The notes beneath the pieces were generated by a model. The model ran no database searches. It was not told the origin of the DNA and saw only the letters and a program-made list of their open reading frames with translations. From the IMG/VR virus record IMGVR_UViG_3300038465_000158, positions 32,686 to 96,685 of that record: a stretch of DNA of 64,000 bases; one strand, given 5' to 3'. The DNA is from a virus. The position numbers and the translations under genes are program-made. Shown piece after piece: positions 1 to 57,184 of this stretch (its first letter is position 1; each line of letters opens with the position of its first letter).

Positions 1-1566
1 ACTTCTCAGTTTGGTCTTTTCCTCACTGAAGGTGCCAACCCCGGCTACAGCGCCCTCGTCGGCGAACTCAACTCCTTGCTGTCTTCCGAACTTGGAAAGA
101 ACATCACGTTGTCGAGTCCGTTGTCGTCCGGCTTTGTTCCGTTCGACCTCGTTGCGCCGTCGCGACTCATCTACCCGGTGTACTCGCCTCTCCGCAACAA
201 GGTTCCGCGTGTCGCTGGTCAGGGTACTTCGCACCGTGCGAAGCTGGTCACCGGCGTTTCCGGTTCGCAGACTGGTGTTGCGACCCAACGTATCTCGATT
301 TCTGAGATTCCGAACGGTCAAAGCATCAACGGCAACTGGCCGCTGAACCTTCCGGCTGCTGGCGCTCAGCAAGCCGTCGACATGAACATTCCTTACAAGT
401 TCTTCGGTCTGAGTGAGTCGCTGTCTTGGCTCGCGCAGTTTGCCGGTCAGGGCTTCGAGGACATCTCTGCACTCGCCAACTTGGTGTTGCTGCAGGAGTT
501 CATGCTCGGCGAGGAGTACACCTTGCTGTCGGGTACGAGCGCCGCTTTGACGGCGCCTGCCACACCGACGCTTGCCAAGCGAACTGCAACTTCGGGTGAG
601 GTCGCGCTTTCCGGCCTCGGTTCGAATGACCTGTTCGTTCTTGTCACCGCTCTCAACTACTTTGGTGAGACCACGGTGACCGGTACGGCTGCGTTGGTCG
701 CCTCTGCCAATGGTGACGTCGTTGACGTTACCATTGCTCCAGTCAACGGCGCGTACAACTACAACATCTACATCGGTCAAGCTGCTTCAGTGCAGCCCGC
801 GAACACGGCCTTCTGGCTGATGGCCGCCGGTGTCGGTGCCACGACGTTTACGCTTCAGGGTGCAGTTCCGACTTCTGGAACCAACCCTCCCGTTGCTGAC
901 ACGGGCACCTCTTCGGCCAACGACTACGAGGGCTGGCTCTCGATTGTTGACGGTCACGCAGGTGGTAAGGCTGGTGGCGCAAGCGTTTACCCAACCGGTT
1001 TCACTGGTTCGTACATCAACAAGTCCGTTGGCGCGACCCTTTCTCACACTGTTCTCTTCAACGCGTTGTCTGCGATGTGGAACGGTAAGGGAACTGGTAA
1101 CTCGTCGACGACTGGTGGATTCCGTGCGGACCCAGCGGAATTGGTCGTGGAAGGTTCGGACAGCTCACGTCTGGCTGAGGAAGTCATCGCAGCCGGTGGA
1201 GCAACGAACTACCGCTTGTTCCTGACTCAGAATGACATCGGTAGCATCACGACCGGTGGCGCAGTTTCTGAGATTCAGAACCCCATCACCCGCAGCATCG
1301 TCCGCATCGTCGTTCACCCCTGGTTGACTCAGGGCACGGCGTTCCTGAACTCCTACACGCTCCCGATGTCTTGGTCGAATGTGACCAACGTCTGGGAGAA
1401 CGTGATGGTTCAGGACTACCTGTCCATCAACTGGCCGGTGATTGACGCGTCGTTCCGTTACAGCATCTACATGTACGGAGCGCTCGTCAACTACGCCCCG
1501 CAGTACAACGGCGTTCTTCAGGGTCTTCAGCAGACTGTTGCTGGTACCACGGGGACGAACTCCTAG
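1..1566 (+). CDS. Major capsid protein, 5'-truncated, with an inserted Ig/FN3-like domain
   Basis: Frame is open from base 1 (TSQFGLFLTEGANPG...ELGKNITLSSP). HK97-like N-terminal features (FVPFDL..P..LIYP..SPLRN.VPR; EE..LL.G), IVVHPWL near the C-terminus, and a central T/A-rich beta insertion. Followed by a strong terminator and head-tail genes. Confidence 0.85.
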   Translation, partial: TSQFGLFLTEGANPGYSALVGELNSLLSSELGKNITLSSPLSSGFVPFDLVAPSRLIYPVYSPLRNKVPRVAGQGTSHRAKLVTGVSGSQTGVATQRISISEIPNGQSINGNWPLNLPAAGAQQAVDMNIPYKFFGLSESLSWLAQFAGQGFEDISALANLVLLQEFMLGEEYTLLSGTSAALTAPATPTLAKRTATSGEVALSGLGSNDLFVLVTALNYFGETTVTGTAALVASANGDVVDVTIAPVNGAYNYNIYIGQAASVQPANTAFWLMAAGVGATTFTLQGAVPTSGTNPPVADTGTSSANDYEGWLSIVDGHAGGKAGGASVYPTGFTGSYINKSVGATLSHTVLFNALSAMWNGKGTGNSSTTGGFRADPAELVVEGSDSSRLAEEVIAAGGATNYRLFLTQNDIGSITTGGAVSEIQNPITRSIVRIVVHPWLTQGTAFLNSYTLPMSWSNVTNVWENVMVQDYLSINWPVIDASFRYSIYMYGALVNYAPQYNGVLQGLQQTVAGTTGTNS

Positions 1567-51204: not shown

Positions 51205-51246
51205 CACGCAGTGCAATGCGTAACATCCCTCGAAAATCGGAGTCTC

Positions 51247-51744
51247 ATGAAAAGAAGTTTCCTCGTTCTTACCATATGTTTGTCGGTGGTGTTTGGTGCT
51301 GTAGCAGCGACTGCGACCAACGCAACCACAACAACGACCTCAACGTCAGTAGTGCGTATCACAACGACTACGTTCAAACTCATTCCGCCACCGAGGGTGA
51401 AAGCACCTCCCTGGTATAAACCGCTTCTGGCGCTTCCGTCGTCGTGGCAAACTCCAATTCAGTGCATGATGCGAGTCGAGTCACGTTCGACTGAAACGCA
51501 GCCGAATTTAGGTGACGACAACGGCAATGGTGTCAACACAAATCATGGTGAAGGTGAACAGTCTGGTCTGTTTCAAATGAGCAATGGACCGCGTGGCATC
51601 TGGGACATTTACGTATTACCGCGTCTTCATGTTGTCATATGGAAAGCGACTGCGTTTCAGCAAGCTGAGGGACTCGTTTTAGTGCTTAAACTTGATGGTG
51701 GTTTTCACCCTTGGCATGGTGATGGCTGCATCTATCCAAACTAA
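51247..51744 (+). CDS. Secreted lysozyme-like (Rpf/SLT-type) transglycosylase
   Basis: Signal peptide, Thr-rich linker, C.MRVES (catalytic Glu), SGLFQM, W...Q, PW..DGC. Confidence 0.7.
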   Translation: MKRSFLVLTICLSVVFGAVAATATNATTTTTSTSVVRITTTTFKLIPPPRVKAPPWYKPLLALPSSWQTPIQCMMRVESRSTETQPNLGDDNGNGVNTNHGEGEQSGLFQMSNGPRGIWDIYVLPRLHVVIWKATAFQQAEGLVLVLKLDGGFHPWHGDGCIYPN

Positions 51745-51778: not shown

Positions 51779-52159
51779 ATGACCGACGAATTCGAAGAAG
51801 TTGAAAAGAAATACGGTCATCTTCTTGTTGTTGGAACATGCTTTCTTCTCATAGTTGCTACTGTCATCGGTGGTCTCTTTTCGCACTGGTTTGCGATTCG
51901 ATTGCAGCAAGATTTCTGGCCGATTGACGCATCTCGCATCTCTCCTAACATCGTTGCCAGTCTCATCCAAGCAGTGTTCGTCGTTCTCATCATGGCGTTG
52001 TTCTACCCGCCATTTAAGAAAGCACTCGATAAAGCAGCGGCGAAACGAGCACTTGAGATTAAGCAACACGTTACTGCTGGCCTCAATGAACTGCACGGCA
52101 AACTCGATCACATCATCTATCACAGTAAAGACATTCCTGAGTACGAGGAGCCAAAATGA
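51779..52159 (+). CDS. Two-TM membrane protein
   Basis: AGGAG RBS; two hydrophobic helices. Confidence 0.65.
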   Translation: MTDEFEEVEKKYGHLLVVGTCFLLIVATVIGGLFSHWFAIRLQQDFWPIDASRISPNIVASLIQAVFVVLIMALFYPPFKKALDKAAAKRALEIKQHVTAGLNELHGKLDHIIYHSKDIPEYEEPK

Positions 52160-52473
52160 CCGACAAAGAATACATACAACATCTTCGACATCACTCAATG
52201 ATGGGAGGTTCACAAGGAGTTGCTGCGCAACAAGAATTGCGAAAATATTCTGACAATGAAGAACGCGATGACCAAGGCAAATGGACCGGTGGAGGTGATG
52301 TCGGTCCGACTGTAACAAATGTTTCAACAGGGCAGCAAATCGGCCGCGCAGACGCCGCAGCTAGAATGTTTGGTGCTGGTAGTAAACAGCATCTTCAAAT
52401 GATTAAAGAATATGGCGTTGGAGAAATCCATCCAGACGGTACACTTGCACCTGGAAGTCAATTTGCTCGATGA
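52156..52473 (+). CDS. KYS..RDDxGRF-motif family protein 1
   Basis: ELRKYSDNEERDDQGKWTGG. Confidence 0.7.
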   Translation: MTDKEYIQHLRHHSMMGGSQGVAAQQELRKYSDNEERDDQGKWTGGGDVGPTVTNVSTGQQIGRADAAARMFGAGSKQHLQMIKEYGVGEIHPDGTLAPGSQFAR

Positions 52474-52865
52474 CAAAGATTGAAGAGTTACCTAAAGATT
52501 TGCTAGGTCGTCCGAACATGTCGTACCTGGGTCACACCAGCGACATCGTCCCAACTCCCTGGCCGTATGAAGGTCGCCGTACCGCTCCAGGAATGCCTCG
52601 CCGTTTCACACGACGCAAAGATGGTCGGACAAAAGCGGAAGACAATGAGCTCAAGCGACTCGCGAAAATCGAGAACCCAGGGAAATGCCAAGGGAGACGC
52701 AATCAATTTGACGGTTGGTGCACATGGCCTTGCTATCCCGGACTCACTGTTTGTTGGCGTCACGGCGGTCGCATTAAGCATATTCGTGCTGTGGGCGACA
52801 AGCGTATGGCTGAGAAGCGAATGATGGAGAAAGCGGGCAAAATCGCTGCCAGAGCGAAGAAGTGA
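52470..52865 (+). CDS. HGG-type Zn-binding protein (terminase small subunit-like domain)
   Basis: CQGRR...C...C.PG.TVCWRHGG. Confidence 0.55.
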   Translation: MTKIEELPKDLLGRPNMSYLGHTSDIVPTPWPYEGRRTAPGMPRRFTRRKDGRTKAEDNELKRLAKIENPGKCQGRRNQFDGWCTWPCYPGLTVCWRHGGRIKHIRAVGDKRMAEKRMMEKAGKIAARAKK

Positions 52866-53083
52866 GAACTCGCGAGAATTCTGTCGTTGTGTCCATTCGC
52901 ATTGCAAAAGAGTTGAACAAAGAGTTTCATGCTTTGTGCGCAGAACTAGGAGTACAATCATCTCGTATGCTTCTTTCTGCAATGACCTCTCAAGTCCAGC
53001 GAATGCGTGAAGATGCGAACAAACGACGACAACTTCGAGATTACTCGACATGGGAAGACCACTGGCGTGCTAACAAAGATTAA
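52862..53083 (+). CDS. Ribbon-helix-helix DNA-binding protein
   Basis: VVVSIRIAKELNKEFHALCAELGVQSSRML. Confidence 0.65.
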   Translation: MRTRENSVVVSIRIAKELNKEFHALCAELGVQSSRMLLSAMTSQVQRMREDANKRRQLRDYSTWEDHWRANKD

Positions 53084-54584
53084 GTCACTCTCCTCATTCG
53101 CCAAGATTGGTGTCGTCAAATACTCTGCTGATGAGGCGCGAGATGACGATGGTCGATTCGCGTCTGGTGATGCGCCAAAGGCAGACGATTCAACATACGT
53201 CAAAGCGAATTCGAAAGACGATCCTGAGAAATGGTCAAAGCAAATCCTCAAGCAATTGGCAAACGGCGAACATCCATACGTAAAACCGAGTGAAGTCGCG
53301 ACATTGCTCAAGCAAGTCTCGAAATCTGGAGACAAGCGAGCAGCAACTGCCGATATTACGAATCTTCGAGTGAATGGGACTCGACTTATGGGACATGACG
53401 GACTTGGCTACAAACGAAGTGAAATGCCACAAATCAGTGGAGATATGAGACATCAGTATTTCGCTGATTTGCGCGCTCAAGGAATCACTGTAACTCCTTC
53501 AACAGCAAATCCTCTCTTACTTCAGCCATCGCAAAGCGAAATTGGAGTCGGCCGCGCAGCAGAAGTGTACAAAGAACTCAACGGCAAAATTGACGACCAA
53601 AAGCAAATTCTCGTTTCGCGAGACAACTACATCATCGATGGTCATCATCACTGGGCGAGTGCTGTCGCAACTGCACTAAGAGCGAACGGTCCGCAAGAAA
53701 TACCGATTGTTCGACTTGGTGCTTCAGGTGAAGATATGGTACGAATCTCAAAGCAATGGGCAGACGACCATGGATTGAAGTCACGAGCTCTCGGTAAATT
53801 TTTCGCGCCGCGACGATACGAGTACCAAGTCGCAAATCCGCTTGCAAAGTACAACGAAGACCAAGCACGAGATGATGATGGGCGATTTGCTTCTGGAAGC
53901 AATTTGCACGGATATGCTCTTAATGTCGCGCAACGAGTTGTTGCTGAAGCGCAAATGCACGTGGCGAAAATCACAGCAGATGTCACCGCTGCAATCAAAG
54001 CAGGCGACGGAGAACGTGCACGAATGACGTCACCACAAGGCAAAGACACGACAGTGAAGAGTCCAGAACGTCTCGCGCAGAAGCTCGTAGAGCCACTCAA
54101 TTCAACGAATAGATTGAGTAAAGCGGGGATTGCGATGCAAACTCTCCATGCTGGTGATGTAGTTCGTTACACTGGAGTCTACAATCCCTCAACGATGACT
54201 GAGGGCATAGGCAGAACCATCTCGTCTCTTCAAGCAACAGGGTACGAGCCTGTCAAAATCAAGAACTATTTCAACTCTGACCCGCAAAACGGATTCCGTG
54301 GCATCAATTCCGTGTGGGAAGACAAGACAAGTGGTGTCAAGTTTGAATTTCAGTTCCACACTCAAGACAGCATCGATGCTGCTGATAAGTGGCACGGAAT
54401 CTATGAAGAGATTCGCCAACTTCCAATGACATCTGAAGCGTACCAGTCAACGAGAACAGCGATGCTCGCTGGATTCGCTCAAGTGCCGATGCCTCCAGGA
54501 ATTGAAAGCGTTGGAACTCGTTCAGTGAAGAAGCGAATAAAGATTGGACGGCTTGCGCACAAAGATGATATAATCAATATATGA
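53007..54584 (+). CDS. Polyvalent protein: motif + ParB/Srx-like domain + motif + RelA/SpoT-like synthetase
   Basis: R.EMPQI, L.PSQSEI, ILVS.DNYIIDGHHHW (ParB-like); KSPERL..K, DVVRYT, KNYF, FRGIN, FEFQFHT (small alarmone synthetase-like); two KY..D.ARDDDGRFASG motifs. Confidence 0.8.
   Translation: MKMRTNDDNFEITRHGKTTGVLTKIKSLSSFAKIGVVKYSADEARDDDGRFASGDAPKADDSTYVKANSKDDPEKWSKQILKQLANGEHPYVKPSEVATLLKQVSKSGDKRAATADITNLRVNGTRLMGHDGLGYKRSEMPQISGDMRHQYFADLRAQGITVTPSTANPLLLQPSQSEIGVGRAAEVYKELNGKIDDQKQILVSRDNYIIDGHHHWASAVATALRANGPQEIPIVRLGASGEDMVRISKQWADDHGLKSRALGKFFAPRRYEYQVANPLAKYNEDQARDDDGRFASGSNLHGYALNVAQRVVAEAQMHVAKITADVTAAIKAGDGERARMTSPQGKDTTVKSPERLAQKLVEPLNSTNRLSKAGIAMQTLHAGDVVRYTGVYNPSTMTEGIGRTISSLQATGYEPVKIKNYFNSDPQNGFRGINSVWEDKTSGVKFEFQFHTQDSIDAADKWHGIYEEIRQLPMTSEAYQSTRTAMLAGFAQVPMPPGIESVGTRSVKKRIKIGRLAHKDDIINI
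54561..54580 (+). promoter_or_regulatory. Extended -10 promoter for a probable leaderless transcript
   Basis: TGATATAAT at 54566-54574, 6 nt before ATG 54581; AAAGATGATATAATC is identical to 47896-47910. Confidence 0.65.
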
Positions 54585-54796
54585 CAGCGTACAAGTACTA
54601 CCAACTAGTGACGCTCGACGGAAAAGAAACACCTCGTTTCTACTATCGACAGGGAGATTCAGGTGACGACATCTGGAATCCGACATCGAATCAATGGGTG
54701 CCTACTCACGATCTTTTGGGAATGATCACAAAGAACGAGACTGCATTAGATAGGATTGATTACGATCCGACAAGTGATCAACAGGAGGTATCATGA
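54581..54796 (+). CDS. Candidate immunity protein for the upstream RelA/SpoT-like domain
   Basis: Small, acidic and aromatic (KYY...YR...W....W); overlaps the toxin stop; has its own promoter. Confidence 0.5.
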   Translation: MTAYKYYQLVTLDGKETPRFYYRQGDSGDDIWNPTSNQWVPTHDLLGMITKNETALDRIDYDPTSDQQEVS

Positions 54797-54972
54797 AGAT
54801 TCCATGGGCATTTATTCTCGCAGTTGTCTTCATCGTTTTTGCCGCAATCGCAGCAGGAGTTCCGCGTCTCATTTTCACAATGAACTGGAATTTCTGGGTA
54901 TGCGTCGCGCTTCTCGCATACTGGATTAGTAAGACGCGCTTCGGCACCGTTGATCTAGCGCAAAAGGAGTAA
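54793..54972 (+). CDS. 59-aa two-TM membrane protein
   Basis: AGGAGGT RBS; MKIPWAFILAVVFIVFAAIAAGVPRLIFTMNWNFWVCVALLAYWISK... Confidence 0.65.
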   Translation: MKIPWAFILAVVFIVFAAIAAGVPRLIFTMNWNFWVCVALLAYWISKTRFGTVDLAQKE

Positions 54973-54974
54973 CC

Positions 54975-55181
54975 TTGAGCAAAGTACGTGAAAAGGATAC
55001 TGGTCGTTTTGCGGCGCAATCGCGAATAGAAGCGCATCCGAATCTTGACAAATTGGATTTGTCAAAAGAACCGAAGAAACAAATCACTCAGAATTTTCAG
55101 CGAGGCGCACTCGGCGCTGATAAAGGCCGCGCTCGCACTAACGCTCAAATTCGTGATTCAGGACCGACGATACCTCAATGA
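54975..55181 (+). CDS. Small basic protein with partial R..TGRF motif
   Basis: AAGGAG RBS; MSKVREKDTGRFAAQ. Confidence 0.55.
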   Translation: MSKVREKDTGRFAAQSRIEAHPNLDKLDLSKEPKKQITQNFQRGALGADKGRARTNAQIRDSGPTIPQ

Positions 55182-55657
55182 GCGAAACAATTGCTGACGA
55201 ACTTTCGTACTTGAATCGACGAGCAGAAGAAGGCGGATACGTTGGAGAATCTGCTCGGCAAGCGTTGTTGAAGTACAGCGAAGATGAAGAACGCGATGAC
55301 CATGGAAGATTTGCTGGAGGCGGTGGAACAGCAAATTCATCACGCGAAGATGTGAGTAGCAGACTTGAAGGAACTGCGCGTCTTTTTGCAACACGACAGA
55401 GCGGCAACGGCGCGCAACGTATTGCAATGAGCGGCAAGGCTGATGGTCTTCGCCAAGCTGCGGATATGATTCGCGGAGGTGCACAACAAAGTCATCTTGA
55501 AGAAGAGCGACAAGCGTCGCTTAGTGAAATGACTCGTATCGGAAGCAAACGAAGTGGTGACCTCACAGATGAATGGGCATATCACAACGGTCGTCAATCT
55601 GGTTTTCAAGATGCGCAAACGGCAATGAGTGAAGCTGGACTTTCAGAATATGCCTAA
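55178..55657 (+). CDS. KYS..RDDxGRF-motif family protein
   Basis: ALLKYSEDEERDDHGRFAGG. Confidence 0.7.
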   Translation: MSETIADELSYLNRRAEEGGYVGESARQALLKYSEDEERDDHGRFAGGGGTANSSREDVSSRLEGTARLFATRQSGNGAQRIAMSGKADGLRQAADMIRGGAQQSHLEEERQASLSEMTRIGSKRSGDLTDEWAYHNGRQSGFQDAQTAMSEAGLSEYA

Positions 55658-56282
55658 AATAATTGACCCAGAATTTCGTGCATATCTTCAAGCGCAAATT
55701 GCTAAAGGTGGACAAATAGGAGCATCTGCGCAATCTGAACTCTTGAAATATTCAGAAGACCAAGCACGCGACGACAATGGTCGATTTGCTTCTGGTGGAG
55801 GCGGAGGTTCAAGCGGTGGAAGTAAAGACGGAGGAAACGTGAGTGACGAAGGTCGTGGAGGCGACGGCGCGAGAGTGCGTGCTGCTTGTCTCGAAGCAGA
55901 AGCAAAGACAAAAGGCGGAAGTACTGCCGCGTATGCTGCTCTGAAAGATGGAGTGAAAGAGACACTGAGCGACTACATATACCGCGGCAAGCAGTACGGC
56001 GAAGAAGACCCCAAAGGACCTGACAATCCAGGACGTTGGGGTGCTTCTATTCAAGCAGTCACTTCAGGTTCAGGCGCTGGAACTGACTGGCTGAATATTA
56101 CGCAACGGGACAATGCTGAAGACAACGTCGGGGACAAAGGCGTCGTGAGTGACATGATTGACACACTGAAAGAGTCTGGTTACGGTTCGTTCACGGACAT
56201 CATTCCGAACAACAGTGGCACGAGTTTCAGCATGAAGTTCAATGATGCGATGAACACGGACCGATACGCGACGCATTCATGA
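55650..56282 (+). CDS. KYS..RDDxGRF-motif family protein
   Basis: ELLKYSEDQARDDNGRFASGG followed by a Gly linker. Confidence 0.7.
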   Translation: MPKIIDPEFRAYLQAQIAKGGQIGASAQSELLKYSEDQARDDNGRFASGGGGGSSGGSKDGGNVSDEGRGGDGARVRAACLEAEAKTKGGSTAAYAALKDGVKETLSDYIYRGKQYGEEDPKGPDNPGRWGASIQAVTSGSGAGTDWLNITQRDNAEDNVGDKGVVSDMIDTLKESGYGSFTDIIPNNSGTSFSMKFNDAMNTDRYATHS

Positions 56283-56422
56283 AGAAAATCGACCCAGAAT
56301 TTCGTGCGTATCTTCAAGCGCAAGTTGCTAAAGGTGGGCAGTCTGGCGCATCTGCGCAATCTGAACTCTTGAAATTTTCAGAAGACCAAGCGCGAGATTC
56401 AAATGGTGAATTTGCTTCTGGC
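55665..56422 (+). repeat. ~130-bp direct repeat encoding the shared leader (55665-55796 and 56291-56422)
   Basis: GACCCAGAATTTCGTGCRTATCTTCAAGCGCAARTTGCTAAAGGTGG...GCATCTGCGCAATCTGAACTCTTGAAATWTTCAGAAGACCAAGC in both copies. Confidence 0.9.
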
Positions 56423-56734
56423 GCCGAGAACTCTGCGTACGCTTCTGCTGCAACCGAAGCGCGAAGTGCGTCCGATGCTGCATCTCGAGAAGTCCAAGGA
56501 TACGGTGAAGGCGCTGACCACGAGCATCTTGCTCAAGCGCACGCAGACGCCGCGAATGCTCACGACATCATAGGACGACTTTACACAGGTTCTGGCAAAA
56601 CTGAATCAGCAACTGCGCATTTCGATGCGGCAGGAGCGCATCGAGACGCTGCCGCTGCTCATCTCTCTGGAAGCGAAGATTCGTACGACAAAACGTACGC
56701 CGCGGCAGACATGACGGATGCGCTGCTAAACTAA
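56279..56734 (+). CDS. KYS..RDDxGRF-motif family protein with His/Ala helical repeats
   Basis: ELLKFSEDQARDSNGEFASG; AH.DAA.AH repeats. Confidence 0.7.
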   Translation: MKKIDPEFRAYLQAQVAKGGQSGASAQSELLKFSEDQARDSNGEFASGAENSAYASAATEARSASDAASREVQGYGEGADHEHLAQAHADAANAHDIIGRLYTGSGKTESATAHFDAAGAHRDAAAAHLSGSEDSYDKTYAAADMTDALLN

Positions 56735-57184
56735 ATGGAATGTGCTGCTGGATGTGGCTCTAGGTCGGAGAGCGATCCTCTGGATGGCAATCTAGCACTT
56801 ATACCGCCAGTTCAATGGATTACTGTTGGTGTCGACATTGCGCTTCAAGAACCGCCTTTCCAGCAACGTGATGAACGCTACAGCGGCGTTTGCTGTTCGA
56901 TGGATTGTGTGATCACTTTTCTTCGTCGCAAAAAGCAAAGTATGGAGCTCTCGAAGATTCCAGTCATCGTTGAACATTCGTGGGATTGGACGCCAGAGAC
57001 ACGAAGCGATGTCGCAAAGCGAATCGGATTTCTCGTTCTTGAAGCGGTCACTGATATGGACGACACTGGCAAGATTGTCGTGCTTCCACTCTCTGAAGAT
57101 GTAGAACTTCTCGGTCGAGAAGTCTGCGTAGCGTTATTTCCTGGAATCCCAGAGCTCGAGCCAACGTCGAATCCACTCGATTAG
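56735..57184 (+). CDS. Hypothetical protein (Cys motifs)
   Basis: CAAGC...CCSMDC; last gene before strand convergence. Confidence 0.5.
   Translation: MECAAGCGSRSESDPLDGNLALIPPVQWITVGVDIALQEPPFQQRDERYSGVCCSMDCVITFLRRKKQSMELSKIPVIVEHSWDWTPETRSDVAKRIGFLVLEAVTDMDDTGKIVVLPLSEDVELLGREVCVALFPGIPELEPTSNPLD

Follow-up and report, generated by a model that had tools for sequence, protein, structure and literature searches.

A portable peptide tag on an array of unrelated phage proteins: a candidate header for head-carried cargo

Introduction

Do the proteins of a small gene array in an uncultured tailed phage travel inside the phage head, and is the short peptide that they share the mark by which they do so? 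The array lies at positions 52156–57184 of what we call the window, the whole 64,000-nucleotide stretch analysed here, which makes up the right-hand end of a 96,685-bp record of an uncultured virus (IMGVR_UViG_3300038465_000158; rated complete by CheckV). Five of its genes carry a short motif, hereafter the tag, ahead of domains (the cargo) that are unrelated to each other. An initial annotation of this DNA, made from the letters alone, saw in the tag, and in a leader that stands before it in four of the genes, a system for loading effectors into the capsid. We find that the tag exists as a distinct element, is under selection at the protein level, heads modules and travels with head genes.

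Proteins injected with phage DNA act before phage gene expression and are a main weapon against host defences. To our knowledge, how such proteins are chosen and loaded is not known for most phages beyond T4 and the giant phages.

Results

Five genes of the array share a tag

The genes of the array, with lengths in amino acids (aa) and tag positions in nucleotides (nt) of the window, are as follows.

52156–52473, plus strand: 105-aa gene with a leader (aa 1–29), a tag (K30; nt 52243–52284), a Gly linker and a 60-aa cargo without family match
52470–53083, plus strand: two untagged genes (131-aa Cys-rich; 73-aa ribbon-helix-helix-like), kept in the related locus L006; anchors between which the tagged cassettes vary
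53007–54584, plus strand: 525-aa two-module protein with tag 1 (nt 53118–53159), a ParB/sulfiredoxin-like domain, tag 2 (nt 53847–53888) and a small alarmone synthetase (RelA/SpoT-like)
54581–54796, plus strand: 71-aa gene overlapping the stop of the synthetase gene, without family match; candidate immunity or antitoxin gene
54975–55181, plus strand: 68-aa untagged conserved anchor gene
55178–55657, plus strand: 159-aa gene with leader, tag (nt 55271–55312), Gly linker and a cargo without known family
55629–56282, plus strand: 217-aa open reading frame (ORF), probable start ATG 55650 (210 aa), with leader, tag (nt 55746–55787), long Gly/Ser linker and a cargo without known family
56279–56734, plus strand: 151-aa gene with leader, tag (F variant, nt 56372–56413) and a His/Ala-rich helical cargo
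56735–57184, plus strand: 149-aa Cys-rich conserved anchor gene that closes the array and is followed by a minus-strand primase gene

A strict six-frame scan of the window for K-[YF]-[SN]-x-[DN]-x-x-R-D-x-x-G-x-[FW] returned exactly six matches, all on the plus strand and within long ORFs of five genes (Lys codons at 52243, 53118, 53847, 55271, 55746 and 56372), compared with 0.0014 expected from residue frequencies and zero in 200 shuffles. These are the six copies that the initial annotation had named. A partial copy that it had placed at 54975 does not belong with them, since its K-D-T-G-R-F does not align in register with R-D-x-x-G-R-F and is K-D-T-G-K-Y in the L006 orthologue. A 718-aa protein encoded directly after the portal gene, outside the window, carries two further tags (residues 26 and 65). 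The ~30-aa leader that had also been reported, E..YL....GG..G.SA...L.K, is indeed common to the same four genes (52156–52473, 55178–55657, 55629/55650–56282 and 56279–56734); it recurs only in small proteins of the phage's own lineage (relatives L006 and L007/L008) and in nine metagenomic proteins. By eye the leader is like the C-terminal capsid-binding helices of the scaffold, and we considered it as a mimic of these; the idea was dropped, as the leader profile misses the scaffold even at E<=10.

Where two copies in this genome have the same tag residue, its codon differs in about half of the cases, indicating that selection acts on the peptide and not on the DNA. The exception is one pair: over the leader and tag, the genes at 55650 and 56279 are identical at 114/132 bases (86%), with the identity ending directly after the tag. 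These two genes are a recent pair. In the AlphaFold model of the 525-aa protein the ParB-like core has a predicted local distance difference test (pLDDT) score of 80–90, and both tags fall in stretches below 50. The model thus predicts a disordered tag, which is what one would expect of a linear motif recognised in trans by another protein.

The tag heads modules in a large family of proteins

We built a profile from leader and tag and compared it with 1.84 billion representative proteins, a search for diverse C-termini that the initial annotation had suggested. The tag profile retrieved 787 clusters at E<=1e-3 and 211 at E<=1e-10, with unrelated cargo domains behind the tag, up to nine copies per protein and carriers of up to 3849 aa. 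The 216 readable proteins contain 678 copies. Their median spacing, 240 residues, is about the length of one domain, and in 147 of these proteins the first tag lies within 80 residues of the N-terminus; spacing and position together indicate that the tag heads the module downstream of it. The consensus from the 216 proteins is [LVI]-x-K-Y-S-[PE]-D-Q-[PAE]-R-D-[DE]-[HR]-G-R-[WF]-[TA]-S-G-G-G. Ahead of the first tag stand leaders of 1 to 70 residues whose types are unrelated between lineages; the leader of the array, which had been taken for the packaging signal, is therefore not the general one. Pfam domains on 104 carriers include MuF (8), portal (6), Peptidase_S78 (1), ADP-ribosyltransferase exoenzyme (15) and zeta toxin (7), besides 2H phosphoesterase, InPase, ART-PolyVal, ParB and GNAT, and one carrier (P0064) has zincin Pfam domains.

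No Pfam or NCBIfam model matched the tag, and the leader, the tag and the four small cargos of the array found no match in Pfam, PHROGs or NCBIfam. Full-text literature searches for tag strings found no published description, so that the tag itself appears to be undescribed.

Two features of the wider family may be mentioned here. A variant tag, K-Y-N-Q-D-Q-P-R-V-P-A-G-N-G-R-E-S-G-R-W, encoded in L081:12577-13545, has an insertion in the turn and suggests a wider family of related junction peptides. In Nitrospirillum/Azospirillum (L046, L047, L049, L052, L055, L061, L063, L069, L072, L073, L077, L085 and L086), several genes per genome consist of a conserved ~130-aa N-terminal domain, the tag and a variable C-terminus, a layout like that of polymorphic toxins, and some of these genes lie 5–9 kb upstream of a portal gene of this phage's type. 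Pre-toxin junction motifs (VENN in CdiA, DPxGL of Rhs) separate a constant N-terminus from variable C-terminal toxins and mark the point of exchange. The Nitrospirillum genomes hold several proteins built in this way around the tag; by contrast, the tag sequence is unrelated to those motifs, has a phage head context and often occurs in many copies per protein.

Cargo is exchanged between relatives behind a retained tag

The two modules of the 525-aa protein are the array cargos that can be assigned. Residues 308–502 are a small alarmone synthetase (PDB 8vx3, E=1.3e-14; Foldseek probability 1.0; VIA Z 9.0, root-mean-square deviation 7.7 over 174 residues), with the motifs VKSPERLAQK, GDVVRY and FEFQFHT present. 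Residues ~146–263 have a ParB/sulfiredoxin-type fold (sulfiredoxin Z 7.0, PadC 6.8, ParB-N 6.5, KorB 6.2), and D211-G-H-H is invariant among the homologues of this domain; the assignment is at the level of fold only, with middling Z values. The RelA/SpoT-like and ParB-like calls of the initial annotation are borne out in this way, and the other cargos match nothing: a protein atlas gave only chance-level rows for one small cargo, and blastn of the array against GenBank phages found no match.

The synthetase domain is of the type found in the Tas1 and CapRel toxins, and the 71-aa gene downstream of it matches no known family. Just before this gene, a promoter-like site (TGGACG-18-TATAAT with TG, 54545–54574) would make it a separately expressed immunity candidate. 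A further, local match of the synthetase domain (window 53922–54512), falling far short of the family cut-off, is to the last ~190 residues of the XopAD/skwp type III effectors (NF041399, E=9e-22); it seems that unrelated systems share this enzyme domain as delivered cargo. Segments rich in His and Ala (H..AA.AH repeats), predicted helical, occur both as tagged cargo and in the scaffold regions of protease-scaffold polyproteins (window 56414–56734; L006:8521-10219; L008:10001-10666; L064:2-3295; L038:3-2774); they may represent scaffold-like or internal head proteins and not effectors.

Cargo has been swapped between relatives. In L006, whose flanking proteins are 50–70% identical to those of this phage, the untagged anchor genes are kept, the tag is retained and the tagged cassettes differ: four leader-bearing small proteins are encoded upstream, and the same ribbon-helix-helix gene is followed by one for a 575-aa protein with a C-terminal ADP-ribosyltransferase (PF03496, E=2e-20). 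The same position thus holds a small alarmone synthetase in this phage and an ADP-ribosyltransferase in L006. The product of L006:8049-8474 has a signal peptide and an Rpf-type transglycosylase-like domain (PF06737, E=1e-10); in the corresponding place this phage encodes an unrelated 177-aa protein that looks secreted (window 51211–51744).

Exchange of this kind raises the possibility that the tag is mainly a recombination junction, with no role in the protein. The cargo of relatives diverges exactly after the tag, and the shared bases of the recent pair stop at the same place. The remaining copies, by contrast, differ at about half of their synonymous positions, and a near-identical peptide in 787 clusters from distant hosts requires selection on the protein. 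The shuffling is more readily understood as the result of a functional tag that the genes have in common, and we consider a mere junction extremely unlikely.

Tagged genes accompany head genes

Using the tag alone we fetched 78 loci, 35 on viral contigs and 43 in bacterial genomes, most of the latter alphaproteobacterial prophages, and identified their portal, protease and capsid genes by iterated searches. Cultivable bacteria with tagged prophage genes include Nitrospirillum amazonense, Caulobacter sp. S45 and Methylocapsa palsarum. A portal of this phage's superfamily is present in 36 of the 78 loci and an HK97-type protease in 25. A capsid gene, of this phage's type or of HK97 type, is in reach in 21 loci, 20 of which also have an HK97-type protease. 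On viral contigs the tagged genes usually occupy the interval between portal and protease; in L038 and L064 the tags lie within a protease-module-scaffold polyprotein, and in L059, L081 and L062 the tagged gene stands between the protease and capsid genes. In two portal ORFs, L009:1361-4252 and L014:2794-5790, the C-terminal part shows homology to the ParB-like module of the 525-aa protein, and one homologue of that module, P0114, carries MuF. A portable tag on unrelated cargo with ties to head genes, as the initial annotation had pictured it, is therefore what we observe: elsewhere the tag heads modules fused to portal, MuF or HK97-type protease. The expected association with this phage's capsid type was too narrow, because the tag occurs with two capsid families, both beside HK97-type proteases.

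In the Afipia and Bradyrhizobiaceae-type prophages among these loci (L059:9342-12770; L081:9351-12475; L062:9923-13080), a tagged, toxin-like gene whose leader consists of Arg/Trp-rich repeats (RPDA.RW.RPD) is inserted, together with an 80-aa gene, beside the HK97-type protease gene and before the capsid gene.

The phage studied here is tailed. Its window opens inside the major capsid gene and continues with a tape-measure gene and then with DNA polymerase, helicase and recombination genes; just upstream of the window are genes for the terminase, a homing endonuclease, the 1211-aa portal, the 718-aa protein, a 136-aa protein and a 728-aa protease-scaffold protein. The homing endonuclease gene between the terminase and portal genes is of the GIY-YIG/NUMOD3 type (L004:3646-4206; genome 22645-23205). 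The head genes that matter here are listed below, a slash marking the predicted cut.

1–1566, plus strand: major capsid gene of phrog_13692 type, beginning upstream of the window, with a predicted maturation site L-G-K/N (nt 88–102) directly before the conserved core
L004:4895-8530 (genome 23894-27529), upstream of the window: 1211-aa portal
L004:8530-10686 (genome 27529-29685), ~5 kb before the window start: 718-aa protein directly after the portal, with two tags

The 1211-aa portal resembles a portal-MuF-ParB fusion, with portal at aa 51–540, a weak MuF hallmark (C..C...NCRC) near aa 880–930 and a ParB-like part at aa 1067–1125. This C-terminal extension gives the sole MuF-like signal in the genome, a weak one (E=0.02; BLASTP E=0.007 to a portal-MuF protein). 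The genes of the array had been described as a system without any MuF domain; none of them has a Pfam hit, and given the hallmark in the portal the description is true of the array but probably not of the genome.

The array itself lies within a non-structural operon far from the head genes, and four of its five cargos have no recognisable effector domain. Its proteins could be ordinary intracellular ones that are never packaged, their tag serving a common partner, degradation or localisation, or being an inherited remnant of head-module cassettes; that helical segments rich in His and Ala like those of one cargo are also found inside scaffold regions fits this as well. By contrast, purifying selection keeps the tag in the array copies and in the syntenic array of L006, alarmone synthetase, ADP-ribosyltransferase and ParB are cargo types known from head-borne effectors, and the tag accompanies head genes in every other context seen. 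We judge a purely intracellular role unlikely.

The tag contains a plausible cut site for an HK97-type protease

The 728-aa protein encoded upstream of the window has the layout of HK97 gp4. Its N-terminal 165 aa align with HK97-type proteases, and His55, Ser100 and an E-x-S-x-V-D-x-P block are invariant across its relatives; the Pfam score of the protease domain is 12 bits, below the cut-off. HK97 gp4 cuts gp5 between K103 and S104 (PMC10275583), at a site that reads F-N-K/S. Of the tag copies, 79% have a Lys just before the aromatic residue and 65% a hydrophobic residue at position -3, for which the background is 21%. In this phage and three relatives the conserved capsid core starts after L-G-K, I-Q-K or V-V-K; the ELGKN noticed in the capsid gene by the initial annotation is encoded at window 88–102, with K as residue 96 from the ATG start. 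Behind the protease domain, spaced as in HK97 gp4, stands an invariant Lys flanked by hydrophobic residues. Judged by sequence, then, the tag, the capsid (L-G-K/N) and the protease tail share a hydrophobic-x-K pattern. Because an HK97-type protease is present, HK97 cuts F-N-K/S and hydrophobic-x-K is enriched before the tag, a cut after the tag Lys by the prohead protease is plausible. The likeness to HK97 gp4 lies in the protease family, the conserved His and Ser and a predicted cut after Lys with a hydrophobic -3; by contrast, the known substrates in HK97 are the capsid protein and the protease itself, and no cargo substrates are known.

The conserved part of the tag, 14–20 residues that mostly follow the Lys, suits a binding motif better than a cleavage site. 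The tag could accordingly be an uncut docking or ejection peptide that binds the capsid interior, scaffold, portal or tail channel, like the cargo-loading peptide of encapsulins, with the modules keeping it. Its predicted disorder on its own agrees with such a role, free-standing carriers need some route of entry to the head, and R-D-x-x-G-R-[WF] resembles what we take to be the hairpin core of YD repeats. However, modules fused to portal, MuF or protease need no docking peptide each and yet carry one, and the conserved Lys with a hydrophobic -3 matches an HK97-type cut site. We think docking without cutting rather unlikely; docking and cutting are mutually compatible roles.

The 718-aa protein suggests another candidate enzyme. 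It has a small confident beta-barrel (aa 86–150), long helices and a C-terminal HExxHxxE that the L029 and L039 orthologues also have (it is conserved in three orthologues encoded beside the portal), and by this motif it is a candidate cargo peptidase. PDB and family searches with it found no match and only three homologues, and its AlphaFold model is unusable (pLDDT 37), so that what speaks for a zincin in this protein is the HExxH. A cut of the tag by such a cargo zinc metallopeptidase, as proposed generally for polyvalent proteins, would agree with the conservation of HExxHxxE beside the portal, with the zincin Pfam domains of carrier P0064 and with the processing by zincin-like peptidases that Iyer et al. 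2017 (PMC5512222) predicted. By contrast, the 718-aa protein lacks a peptidase family or fold match, and such a domain is not seen in most tagged loci, in contrast to the HK97-type protease found at nearly every locus that reaches a capsid gene (20/21). We regard a cargo metallopeptidase as a very unlikely source of the cut.

Discussion

We infer that the proteins of the array are packaged, cut after the tag Lys, cut there by the HK97-type protease, and injected. The explanation that we favour, and to which we give about an even chance, is that the tag is a portable header for head-carried proteins, cut after its Lys by the HK97-type protease, that the modules leave with the DNA, and that the array is a free-standing version of this arrangement. 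In most carriers the tag punctuates large multi-enzyme (polyvalent) proteins encoded beside, or fused with, portal, MuF or the HK97-type prohead protease. The upstream part of the chain (portal, MuF, protease or a lineage-specific leader) would bring it into the prohead, where the HK97-type protease would cut after the conserved Lys; each module would be released with the rest of the tag as its new N-terminus and would leave with the DNA. In this lineage the tag is also present on free-standing genes at a second locus, for a ParB-like plus alarmone-synthetase effector and four small proteins, and the ~30-aa leader of the small proteins may supply the docking that a fused portal, MuF or protease supplies elsewhere.

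Several observations weigh against the header explanation. A distance of ~57 kb separates the array from the portal; the array ends a long, tightly packed operon downstream of replication and nucleotide-metabolism genes, and a promoter and terminator scan of the array stayed near background, with no shared late promoter seen. Because HK97-type proteases are common and the loci are not independent, their co-occurrence with the tag is weak evidence. The hydrophobic-x-K pattern carries little information, the Lys is displaced by one or two positions or missing in some tag copies, and the thirteen conserved residues after it go far beyond what a protease usually needs; as the capsid site shares only L-x-K with the tag, the main role of the tag may be binding and not cutting. 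The conserved HExxH of the 718-aa protein offers an alternative candidate protease. Finally, the tag was not found in 50,697 GenBank phage records, in which tblastn with leader plus tag, the consensus tag and an H-P-R-D variant found nothing significant.

A broader form of the header explanation would be a two-part cargo code in phages with HK97-type proteases, in which a leader or fused head domain imports the protein and a universal tag is cut after Lys, so that ~45 added codons would make any gene injected cargo. We consider this code possible but doubtful. It is pure speculation that the exposed N-terminal Tyr or Phe, with the rest of the tag, might be an exit signal, or a bacterial N-end-rule signal that limits the life of an injected toxin.

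Head-borne injected effectors are, as a kind of system, already known. Phage polyvalent proteins and effectors fused to portal or MuF, with the idea that they are injected with the DNA and processed by a peptidase, are described by Iyer et al. 2017 (PMC5512222); in the passages of that paper examined here no description of the tag is found. The domain repertoire is alike (ParB, RelA/SpoT, ADP-ribosyltransferase, zeta toxin, 2H, InPase), and so is the head-gene context in most tag carriers. The array differs in consisting mostly of single-module free-standing genes far from the head module, and its candidate protease is of HK97 type, not a zincin. Only the 525-aa protein joins two or more unrelated domains in one polypeptide, the four small genes having one cargo each, and it is the tagged 718-aa gene, not the array, that is encoded among the head genes. 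As a set, the four small genes are split single-module relatives of polyvalent proteins.

MuF polymorphic toxins of temperate phages, on which Jamet et al. are said to have reported in 2017, reportedly have a variable C-terminal toxin domain and are delivered by the particle. The array may resemble them in a variable toxin-like C-terminal domain, in a possible small downstream immunity gene and in the delivery by phage particles proposed here, and differs from them in that its genes are without MuF (PF04233) and that the constant part is a tag of 14–20 residues plus a short leader.

In T4, a short N-terminal leader targets the unrelated internal proteins IPI–III and Alt to the prohead and is removed by the prohead protease (PMC9026906). 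The gp21 protease of T4 cuts after L/I-x-E, the leader is the signal and nothing conserved remains, whereas the conserved part of the tag follows the proposed cut; no conserved L/I-x-E precedes the tag, and the protease of this phage is HK97 gp4-like, not of gp21 type. In the giant phages SPN3US and phiKZ, many propeptide-bearing proteins of the head interior have a short motif in common, at which the prohead protease cuts them, and they are ejected into the host (PMC7411985, PMC10052503). There the protease family and the motif are different and no tag is repeated between modules, and the cuts were shown by mass spectrometry, whereas the system described here is known from its sequence.

What is new is that tagged modules occur as free-standing genes ~57 kb from the portal, in a split distal array. 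If the tag marks cargo, injected effectors could be listed from sequence alone, including those that lie far from head genes and are missed by context-based searches. The tag would then also be a simple handle for loading foreign proteins into HK97-type capsids, and loading and release would be testable in cultivable Alphaproteobacteria with tagged prophage genes.

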